From assembly GCF_050320075.1 (NCBI RefSeq), contig NZ_CP190018.1: 64,000 nucleotides of DNA; one strand, 5' to 3'. Source of the DNA: Escherichia coli (GTDB lineage Bacteria; Pseudomonadota; Gammaproteobacteria; Enterobacterales; Enterobacteriaceae). This document shows positions 18,283 to 21,034 of this stretch, in pieces. The notes under the pieces are model-generated. The model had not been told where the DNA came from. It searched no databases and worked only from the letters and a program-made list of their open reading frames with translations. Position 1 is the first letter of the stretch. Each line of letters opens with the position of its first letter. A program made the position numbers and the translations under genes.

Positions 18283-18290
18283 GACCAACA
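18283..18290. repeat. Right copy of flanking direct repeat (GACCAACA)
   Basis: See 15576-15583. Confidence 0.6.
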
Positions 18291-18771
18291 CTGTCACGTA
18301 ACGCCAGATAACTACAAAAACACCTTTTTCCTCCTGTAAATTGCAGTTCCTGCAAGAACATCAAGGTATAATGTTGGAACAGCGTGTGATACACACTTAG
18401 CATCATGTTTTGTATGTGTTTTTTTAAAACTTTACAACTTTAAAGTCTTTTTCAGGTTAAAGGATACAACTTTAATGTCTCTACACAATTGCAGCGAAGT
18501 CGTCCTGAGCTATTTCCTAAAGATGAAAATTATTAGAGTCGCATTAAAAATGAGCTAATTTTGATAGTGGTTATCTTGTGATTATTTTCTAATGAGCCTG
18601 TGAACTGAGACCCTCCATGCTTAATATAAGGTGGAGGGAAAGGTGATTAAAACTCCCCCAGTGGCCAGATCTTTATAAAATATGAACAGGTTGAAAAAAT
18701 CAGCAACTTAGCTGTTTATTTATACTTAACCACTATGCATTAATGCTGCGTTATTTCATGATACCTAAGAA

Positions 18772-18810
18772 AAACCAGCGTTACGCAAATAATCAACGCT
18801 GGTTTTATCC
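18772..18810. terminator. Hairpin (CCAGCGTT...AACGCTGG) flanked by A-run and T-run; bidirectional terminator candidate downstream of the minus-strand membrane gene fragment
   Basis: Stem-loop and flanking runs read directly from sequence. Confidence 0.4.
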
Positions 18811-18822
18811 GGTACGTTGCAA

Positions 18823-19179
18823 TTATTTTTTAGCAGAACCCGCTTCTAATATTGAAACGATTGAGAACAACGTAAAGCATACCGCTCCCAAACCGACCAG
18901 AACCCGCGAAGGAATAAAATATCCCATATCGGTCTGCGCCATTTCCGCAAGAAACGATGCCAGGAAAAGGCAAAACAGGCAGGTGAAGACGGGAATCATC
19001 GGTATTCTGTTGGCTAACGAACAGGTACGTCTCCAGACCAGTGCCAGTAGCCAGACTTTTGAGAATATGCTGTAACAGATCATTCCGAGGCAAATGAGGA
19101 TAATGCCGGGAGCCAGTCGGGCGCTTGCATCGGAGCTGACTAACACGTATATGCCCTGCAGCACCGTGATTGAGCCGAG
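18823..19179 (-). pseudogene. 5'-truncated gene fragment for a small polytopic membrane protein; N-terminus replaced by the IS1 end
   Basis: Hydrophobic 113-aa ORF whose frame stays open upstream into the IS1 inverted repeat, where the first stop lies; no native start or RBS. Confidence 0.45.
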
Positions 19180-19234
19180 GGTGATGCTGCCAACTTACTG
19201 ATTTAGTGTATGATGGTGTTTTTGAGGTGCTCCA

Positions 19235-19510
19235 GTGGCTTCTGTTTCTATCAGCTGTCCCTCCTGTTCAGCTACTGACGGGGTGGTGCGTAACGGCAAA
19301 AGCACCGCCGGACATCAGCGCTATCTCTGCTCTCACTGCCGTAAAACATGGCAACTGCAGTTCACTTACACCGCTTCTCAACCCGGTACGCACCAGAAAA
19401 TCATTGATATGGCCATGAATGGCGTTGGATGCCGGGCAACCGCCCGCATTATGGGCGTTGGCCTCAACACGATTTTCCGCCATTTAAAAAACTCAGGCCG
19501 CAGTCGGTAA
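19235..19510 (+). CDS. insA: IS1 InsA
   Basis: 91-aa product [24 protein letters not shown]. Confidence 0.93.
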
Positions 19511-19932
19511 CCTCGCGCATACAGCCGGGCAGTGACGTCATCGTCTGCGCGGAAATGGACGAACAGTGGGGATACGTCGGGGCTAAATCGCGCCAGCGCT
19601 GGCTGTTTTACGCGTATGACAGGCTCCGGAAGACGGTTGTTGCGCACGTATTCGGTGAACGCACTCTGGCCACACTGGAGCGTCTTCTAAGCCTGCTGTC
19701 GGCCTTTGAGGTCGTGGTATGGATGACGGATGGCTGGCCGCTGTATGAATCCCGCCTGAAGGGAAAGCTGCACGTAATCAGCAAGCGTTACACTCAGCGA
19801 ATTGAGCGGCATAACCTGAATCTGAGACAACATCTGGCAAGGCTGGGACGGAAGTCACTGTCGTTCTCAAAATCGGTGGAGCTGCATGACAAGGTCATCG
19901 GGCATTATCTGAACATAAAACACTATCAGTAA
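19429..19932 (+). CDS. insB: IS1 InsB (expressed as InsAB' transposase by -1 frameshift)
   Basis: 167-aa frame overlapping the insA 3' end. Confidence 0.9.
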
Positions 19933-19947
19933 GTTGGAGTCATTACC

Positions 19948-21034
19948 CGCTGACAGAACCTATTTCTCCAATTGTTCACCTGTTGATCCCACAAGTACCA
20001 GACCAACCTATTTTGGCGATACCGATGGCTCAGTTGGTGCAGTTTTGTACGCGCTTTTCGCAACGGGACATTTGGGAATCATGGCTGAAGGAGAAAATTT
20101 CCTTGGCCAGTTGCTTAATATAGAAGATGAAGTTCTCAACGTATTGCTAAGGGAGAACTTTAATGAGCAACTTGACACTAATGTTAATACAATAATCAGT
20201 ATTCTGAACAGAAGAGATATAGTTTTAGAAAGTCTTCAGCCTTATTTAGTTATTAATAAAGACGCTGTGACGCCATGTACGTTTCTGGGTGACCAAACCG
20301 GCGATCGATTTAGTAATATCTGTGGCGATCAATTTATCATCGATTTGTTAAAACGTATAATGAGTATCAATGAAAACGTTCATGTATTAGCTGGAAATCA
20401 TGAAACGAATTGCAATGGTAACTATATGCAGAACTTCACGCGTATGAAACCACTTGATGAGGATACCTACGCTGGGATAAAAGATTATCCTGTATGTTTC
20501 TATGACCCTAAATACAAAATAATGGCAAATCATCATGGGATAACTTTTGATGATCAGCGAAAACGTTACATTATAGGACCGATAACAGTCTCTATTGATG
20601 AAATGACCAATGCTCTCGATCCGGTCGAATTAGCGGCAATTATTAATAAAAAGCATCATACTATAATTAATGGTAAAAAGTTTAAAACTAGCCGGGCTAT
20701 CTCTTGTCGATCCTTTAATCGTTATTTTTCTGTTTCGACAGATTACAGACCTAAACTTGAAGCACTATTAGCATGCTCACAAATGTTAGGTATAAATCAA
20801 GTTGTTGCACATAACGGAAATGGTGGGAGAGAACGCATAGGTGAAACGGGGACAGTTTTAGGTCTTAACGCCCGTGACAGTAAACATGCTGGAAGAATGT
20901 TCAGCATGCATAATTGCCAAATTAACCCTGGTGCGGGGCCTGAGATAACCACTCCCTGGAAGTCTTACCAGCATGAAAAAAACAAAAATGGACTTATGCC
21001 TTTGATTAGAAGGCGCACAATGTTACAGCTCTGA
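19948..21034 (+). pseudogene. 5'-truncated AT-rich gene with metallophosphatase-like motifs, interrupted by IS1 (possibly yhiJ-like by position)
   Basis: Reading frame runs in from the IS1 end (track start is a TTG inside IS1); motifs GDTDG, GDQTGDRF and AGNHE; adjacent to yhiI. Confidence 0.5.

Follow-up and report, generated by a model that had tools for sequence, protein, structure and literature searches.

IS1 is said to promote recA-independent deletions of the DNA adjacent to it, an observation attributed to Reif and Saedler in 1975 and to Turlan and Chandler in 1995. Insertion sequence copies that lack target duplications are generally ascribed either to adjacent deletions of this kind or to recombination between two IS copies (PMC11708052). 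A second system relevant to the locus described here is the Tn7/sil/pco transposon, for which transposition into the yhiN/yhiM interval has been described in E. coli J53 (PMC8417528). Each component of our locus (an IS1, an IS-bounded deletion, and a Tn7-like sil/pco transposon at the yhiN site) is already known. We analyzed a 64,000-nucleotide stretch of an E. coli chromosome (the window), in which a single IS1 copy lies close to the end of such a transposon, and compared it with complete E. coli genomes. The IS1 almost certainly bounds a deletion lying within the E. coli chromosomal backbone.

Structure and Identity of the IS1 Element

The IS1 occupies positions 19180-19947 on the plus strand and is complete. 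Its length of 768 bp and its terminal inverted repeats (IRL, 19180-19202, GGTGATGCTGCCAACTTACTGAT; IRR, 19925-19947), which agree at 19 of 23 positions, correspond to those that define the IS1 family, namely ~768 bp and imperfect ~23-bp inverted repeats (GGTGATGCTGCCAACTTACTGAT / GGTAATGACTCCAACTTA(C/T)TGAT). The insA gene (19235-19510), the A6C frameshift motif (19486-19492, within the stretch TTTAAAAAAC at 19483-19492) and the insB' frame, which is open to 19932, are all intact, and insA and insB' are predicted to be joined by a -1 programmed frameshift at A6C, as expected for this family. The NCBIfam model for the IS1 transposase (NF033558) matched at profile positions 1-81 and 76-199, one match per frame, and the PGAP label at the equivalent position of E. 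coli YZLc1-3 is 'IS1 family transposase, programmed frameshift'. Nucleotide identity to IS1A and IS1B was 96-97%, a level that likewise places the element in the IS1 family.

The same variant, identical at 768 of 768 bases, was present in at least 60 other records at both chromosomal and plasmid loci, and also in the island-free reference strain 266917_2 described below. Relative to IS1B, the element showed no difference up to approximately nt 486 and 21 differences thereafter, which gives it a mosaic look. A chimera of two IS1 variants formed in situ was considered and rejected, because the exact 768-bp variant is common at other loci; since the variant is so widespread elsewhere, its mosaic look says nothing about the origin of the deletion. 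A consensus scan revealed no outward promoter at the right end of IS1 that might serve the adjoining yhiJ fragment; its only hit was a promoter-like site already known from the left inverted repeat, and shuffled sequence gave no fewer sites.

Flanking Genes and the 3,465-bp Deletion

Both genes flanking the IS1 are remnants. To the left, positions 18823-19179 on the minus strand hold a yhiM pseudogene (encoding a DUF2776 inner-membrane protein) consisting of codons 233-350 and the stop codon, i.e., the last 118 codons, the translation of which is identical to the C-terminus of reference YhiM. To the right, positions 19948-21034 on the plus strand hold a yhiJ pseudogene comprising the last 1,087 nt of the gene (residues 180-540, 361 codons), which retains the whole DUF4049 domain; a search for solved structures related to YhiJ found none. 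The open frame of this remnant extends back into the right end of IS1 as far as a TTG at 19934. RefSeq annotation of YZLc1-3, where the locus is identical, lists both genes as pseudogenes with truncated N-termini. Both yhiM and yhiJ are backbone genes found in essentially all E. coli, and the yhiJ-side flank was present in 5,413 of 5,426 complete E. coli genomes. Further rightward the backbone is intact, with the small open reading frame yhiY at 21224-21337 on the plus strand (annotated at 10995-11108 of the identical locus L001, offset +10229), followed by yhiI, an HlyD-family gene at 21400-22467 on the plus strand and the first intact backbone gene in this direction.

The 9-mers abutting the IS1, TGAGCCGAG on the left and CGCTGACAG on the right, agreed at only 3 of 9 positions. 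No common k-mer of 5 or more bases was found between the junction zones when the IS1 boundaries were moved by up to 6 bases, and a duplication of another length or a shifted IS1 boundary was rejected on this basis. As a control, simple IS1 insertions from other genomes were run through the same script, which returned perfect 9-bp duplications in 5 of 5 cases.

As the empty-site reference we used E. coli strain 266917_2 (locus L002), which has no island, is 99.86-100% identical to the window in the flanks, and carries pitA, yhiN, yhiM, a yhiL-like DUF4049 gene, yhiJ, yhiY and yhiI, all intact. The left flank of the IS1 matched L002 3456-3535 and the right flank L002 7001-7080, both at 100%. With flank end-points at L002 3535 and 7001, 3,465 bp are absent from the window lineage. 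The loss takes in codons 1-232 of yhiM, the spacer between yhiM and yhiL, the entire yhiL gene, and nt 1-536 of yhiJ, and on both sides it directly abuts the terminal base of the IS1. The deleted segment has a G+C content of 36%, compared with 52% for the window, and it was not found again within the window, where the only match was a 68-nt paralogous one between yhiL and yhiJ. The locus therefore has neither the 8- to 9-bp duplication nor the flanks contiguous in an empty-site reference that mark a simple insertion; it combines an intact IS, a deletion end-point at the IS terminus, no duplication, and missing DNA that is contiguous in relatives, which is the structure of an IS-mediated adjacent deletion.

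An earlier, sequence-only reading of this DNA had described a complete IS1 with differing flanking 9-mers, its left end replacing the N-terminus of a minus-strand membrane protein gene and the frame of a plus-strand gene entering from its right end, and had attributed the arrangement to an IS1-associated deletion or recombination rather than to simple insertion. All of this was borne out, the two genes being yhiM and yhiJ. That reading had also named a duplication emerging after correction of the IS1 boundaries as a finding that would speak against it, and none emerged; the comparison with an island-free genome that it had proposed identified the deleted DNA as part of yhiM, yhiL and part of yhiJ.

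Position of the Island End

The stretch of interest begins at 18283, a start fixed by the right end of an ISCro1 element (IS66 family; 15583-18282, minus strand) that is a simple insertion in the left-end region of the transposon. The ISCro1 borders and its 7-bp direct repeat (GACCAAC) were set by comparison with strain WWCOL-236 (L004), which is without this IS, and its tnpA, tnpB and transposase genes are annotated in the identical locus of YZLc1-3. Positions 18283-18487 are the terminal 205 bp of the left end of the Tn7-like sil/pco transposon, and positions 18488-18508 on the plus strand correspond to the 3'-terminal 21 nt of yhiN, TGA stop included, which have been displaced from the rest of the gene (L002 2844-2864). 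The first 5-6 nt of this displaced piece constitute the target duplication, ATTGC(A): in YZLc1-3, L002 2844-2849 flanks the element at either end. The transposon termini are TGT...ACA, and in YZLc1-3 the reverse complement of the left end aligns with the yhiN-side end (TGTGTAGAGACATTAAAGTTGTA vs TGTCCGAGGACAATAAAGTTGTA); TAAAGTTGTA motifs, putative transposase-binding sites, are repeated in both ends. The element inserted 15-21 nt short of the yhiN stop codon, and in YZLc1-3 its tnsA gene is adjacent to yhiN. Taken together, the termini, the repeated internal motifs, the short duplication and the site near the 3' end of a conserved gene are those expected of a Tn7-like end and point to an element of this type. 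Homology to the island-free strain 266917_2 begins at 18488, and homology to the sil/pco transposons borne on large plasmids of Enterobacter, Salmonella and E. coli ends at 18487/18488, plus or minus one base. The island/backbone junction is therefore at 18487/18488, 692 bp to the left of the IS1.

Distribution Among Complete E. coli Genomes

The island end adjoining yhiM was detected in approximately 607 of 5,426 complete E. coli genomes, a count made at an 80% coverage threshold, with island-free genomes able to cover only 73% of the query. Both IS1 junctions together occurred in only two of the 5,426 genomes, YZLc1-3 (chicken, China) and Ec-U3 (human urine, Burkina Faso), to which the ISCro1 insertion is also common. 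Since so few of the genomes with the island end beside yhiM have the IS1 junctions, the deletion arose later and is specific to one clone. Other strains carry the island and the deletion separately. WWCOL-236 has the island together with full-length yhiM, yhiL and yhiJ; BY63 (L009) has the island and full-length sequence of the same three genes, the sole interruption being a simple insertion of IS1 into yhiJ; and VL40 has an equivalent IS1-bounded deletion and no island. Thus, the deletion is a separate, clone-specific event in the backbone and not a scar of island acquisition, and it is later than, or unrelated to, the Tn7-like insertion at the 3' end of yhiN.

The island of YZLc1-3 contains a second IS1 outside the window (L003 16469-17236), which is flanked by ATAAAATCC and TGAAACCCG and likewise has no duplication. 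The sequence-only reading had suggested that matching half-duplications might be found at other IS1 copies; those of the window IS1 had no match at this second island copy of YZLc1-3 in either orientation. An inversion or exchange between the two YZLc1-3 copies was also considered and rejected, the flanks being mismatched in either orientation.

Origin of the Deletion

In our view the loss most likely arose as an adjacent deletion, through replicative transposition of a resident IS1 within the same DNA molecule. IS1 would have inserted into the AT-rich segment, in yhiM or in yhiJ, after which one IS1 end would have been joined, by replicative strand transfer, to a target nearby on that molecule. 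Such an event would delete the DNA between the IS end and its target, retain an intact IS1, and destroy the 9-bp duplication. Adjacent deletion is the most parsimonious route because one insertion and one intramolecular event suffice. Since recombination between two IS1 copies and a one-step event would give the same product, we infer both the role of transposase and the sequence of steps from parsimony and from the known behavior of IS1. A search of the 5,426 genomes for precursor alleles, in either orientation, found no simple IS1 with a TGAGCCGAG duplication in yhiM and none with a CGCTGACAG duplication in yhiJ; the junction search, which covered the left and right junctions and an oppositely oriented IS1 at the yhiJ site, hit only YZLc1-3 and Ec-U3, and VL40 for the right junction alone.

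A RecA-dependent crossover between direct IS1 copies, one in yhiM (at TGAGCCGAG) and one in yhiJ (at CGCTGACAG), is possible but rather doubtful. It would excise the intervening 3.4 kb together with one IS1 and leave half of each duplication, a predicted product that is exactly as seen, and the region is often struck by IS1. Furthermore, strain 2024CK-00474 (L010) carries two IS1 copies in direct orientation, one in yhiL and the other in yhiJ, both bordered by 9-bp duplications; this is the kind of precursor required, and recombination between IS copies is a common cause of missing duplications in the literature (PMC11708052). This route needs three events rather than two, however; neither single insertion at these positions was present in the 5,426 genomes, and the mosaic look of the IS1 lends it no support, the variant being 100% identical at many loci and on plasmids. 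Absence of the precursor insertion from both junctions would also suit a one-step insertion with deletion, in which an incoming IS1 joins two target sites 3.4 kb apart and no duplication ever forms, a mechanism put forward for IS5 and IS481 (PMC11708052). We consider such an event quite improbable for IS1, for which the literature retrieved holds no documentation; all 14 of 14 IS150 insertion-plus-deletion cases in the LTEE were two-step adjacent deletions (PMC11708052), and failure to find a precursor among sampled complete genomes counts for little.

The sequence-only reading had gone further and taken the IS1 as the probable seam between the sil/pco island and the yhiI backbone, made at acquisition of the island or by its rearrangement. 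The IS1 does lie only 692 bp from the island end, and the YZLc1-3 island does contain another IS1 without a duplication; nevertheless, this account is hardly tenable, given core backbone genes on both sides of the IS1 and an island that stops at 18487, with Tn7-like termini, a target duplication, and the end of plasmid homology all at that point. In addition, the ~607 genomes carry the island beside a yhiM that is intact or not disrupted by IS1, with this IS1 in only two; VL40 has its equivalent deletion without any island; and the flanks of the two YZLc1-3 copies mismatch in any orientation. Of the earlier interpretation as a whole, the deletion scar therefore stands and its placement at the island/backbone junction does not. 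Collapse of a repeat at an IS1 copy during assembly has to be considered for a multicopy element that matches at 22-26 places in each of these genomes, but besides the window, two complete genomes that were assembled independently and come from different continents show the same junctions. Because two independent complete genomes share the structure, an assembly artifact is ruled out for practical purposes. Adjacent deletion remains our preferred explanation.

IS1 Targeting of the yhiM-yhiJ Region

Copies of IS1 in yhiM, yhiL or yhiJ, at various positions, were found in at least ~17 genomes. Given this number and its G+C content of 36%, the yhiM-yhiJ segment is a favored IS1 target. Other IS1-bounded deletions without a duplication occur here in VL40 (3246/7001) and PCP06171 (5491/7023; both in L002 coordinates). 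VL40 belongs to a different lineage, its flanks being 96-97% identical to the window and its IS1A differing from the window IS1 at 28 positions. Its right junction falls at the same yhiJ base as that of the window lineage (L002 7001), with the left junction at 3246 vs 3535. The PCP06171 junction is 22 bp from the shared yhiJ junction, and all three junctions belong to deletion alleles.

Hot-spot behavior is known for IS1, and the repeated use of a yhiJ junction fits with it. An exact coincidence would be expected in ~1-2% of cases by a back-of-envelope estimate that assumes about nine same-orientation events in ~1.6-4.9 kb. Among the roughly 17 nearby insertions, no simple IS1 insertion at L002 7001 was found in either orientation. 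The idea that the bond before yhiJ nt 537 (window 19947/19948) is a highly specific, recurrent IS1 joining site is speculative, and we regard it as unlikely. If it were true, intramolecular IS1 strand transfer would be steered to the site, for example by AT-rich DNA of the H-NS type bent by a nucleoid protein, and the choice of targets by IS1 here would be more than loosely AT-biased.

Significance and Comparison with Known Systems

For the most part these results are a matter of correct annotation: the IS1 is not the border of the metal-resistance island; it tags a deletion that is specific to one clone and inactivates three AT-rich, poorly characterized backbone genes (yhiM, yhiL and yhiJ). 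Mapping of the island border or its attachment site in the present lineage should use position 18487 and a Tn7-like element at the known yhiN site. The YZLc1-3 / Ec-U3 lineage could also be recognized by its IS1 junctions, either by PCR or in silico.

The classical IS1 adjacent deletions of gal and Tn9 share these features with the present one: an intact IS1 is kept, an IS1 terminus forms the precise start of the deletion, no 9-bp duplication survives, and the DNA removed is a continuous stretch in the reference. Unlike those deletions, the present case is a natural allele of the chromosome that has become fixed in a clone and is known from sequence. A deletion between directly repeated IS copies has an indistinguishable end product, one IS with non-matching half-duplications, but needs two prior insertions; a similar two-copy state exists in 2024CK-00474. 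The Tn7-like sil/pco element is the neighbor of the IS1 deletion and not the deletion itself. In comparison with Tn7/sil/pco of pMG101 and IncHI2 plasmids, it occupies the same yhiN-yhiM locus as that reported for J53 (PMC8417528), its left end is 100% identical to the plasmid copies, and its TGT/ACA ends and short target duplication are alike. It differs from the known elements in bearing the ISCro1 insertion in the present lineage and, in YZLc1-3, in having lost most of its tns genes via a second IS1-associated deletion.

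Recurrent IS1 junctions in yhiJ

Comparison of the IS1/yhiJ junctions placed them at the identical base in the window lineage (19947/19948 of the window) and in the unrelated strain VL40 (7100/7101 of locus L005), two alleles that differ from each other in the IS1 variant and in the left end-point of the deletion. The corresponding junction of strain PCP06171 (5100/5101 of locus L007) lies 22 bp from this base, and no simple IS1 insertion at the base shared by the window lineage and VL40 was found among 5,426 genomes. The yhiJ junction base is probably a hot spot for IS1, to date represented only in deletion alleles.

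Independent simple insertions of IS1 in yhiJ were present in strains BY63 and 2024CK-00474 (4333-5100 of the respective loci, L009 and L010), 2 bp apart within positions 6586-6596 of the locus from the island-free reference strain 266917_2 (L002). The duplications flanking these copies, GGTGATGAT and TAGGTGATG, both include GGTGATG, the heptamer at the extreme left terminus of IS1, and IS1 may have targeted sites resembling its own end in these two strains.

Structure and decay of the sil/pco transposon

The Tn7-like element interrupts the yhiN reading frame 15-21 nt upstream of the stop codon (window 18488-18508; 14501-15724 of locus L003 from strain YZLc1-3), and the C-terminus of YhiN is therefore altered and longer in island-bearing strains (407 aa versus 400 aa otherwise). 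Between pcoE and the left end of the transposon lies ISCro1 (window 15583-18282), a member of the IS66 family, for which the usual repeat is 8 bp; it is flanked by the 7-bp repeat GACCAAC, and the identical insertion was found in no complete genomes other than YZLc1-3 and Ec-U3.

YZLc1-3 carries a second IS1, an IS1B copy of opposite orientation with no duplication (L003 16469-17236), located ~7 kb upstream of the window start. This copy bridges a truncated tnsA and a fragment of a TOPRIM gene, and therefore tnsB-E and the adjoining cargo are absent and the sil/pco transposon of this lineage should be immobile. The island of WWCOL-236 has undergone an internal deletion that fused a fragment of pcoD to one of pcoS (L004 4452-5229), and pcoR is missing. 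Island decay takes different routes across lineages.

Farther right in the window (about 26500-40900), remnants of ISAs1 and IS630 lie 3' of yhhJ. Next comes an Rhs element accompanied by a sel1-repeat gene, orphan C-terminal fragments of Rhs and genes for NTF2-fold immunity proteins; the nik operon lies beyond it. The sel1-repeat gene of Ec-U3 contains an additional IS1 that is absent from the window.

The DUF4049 domain of YhiJ

No solved structure with a sequence relationship to YhiJ DUF4049 (examined at window 20290-20420 within the 5'-truncated yhiJ and at L002 6465-8084, the intact gene) was found. The domain gave weak, sub-threshold matches to the Pfam models Metallophos (E = 0.017) and WipA_Phos (E = 0.031) and to the NCBIfam model for the T4SS effector Wip (E = 6.5e-4), and it contains the motifs GDxxGDR...GNHE, which are typical for calcineurin-like phosphoesterases.
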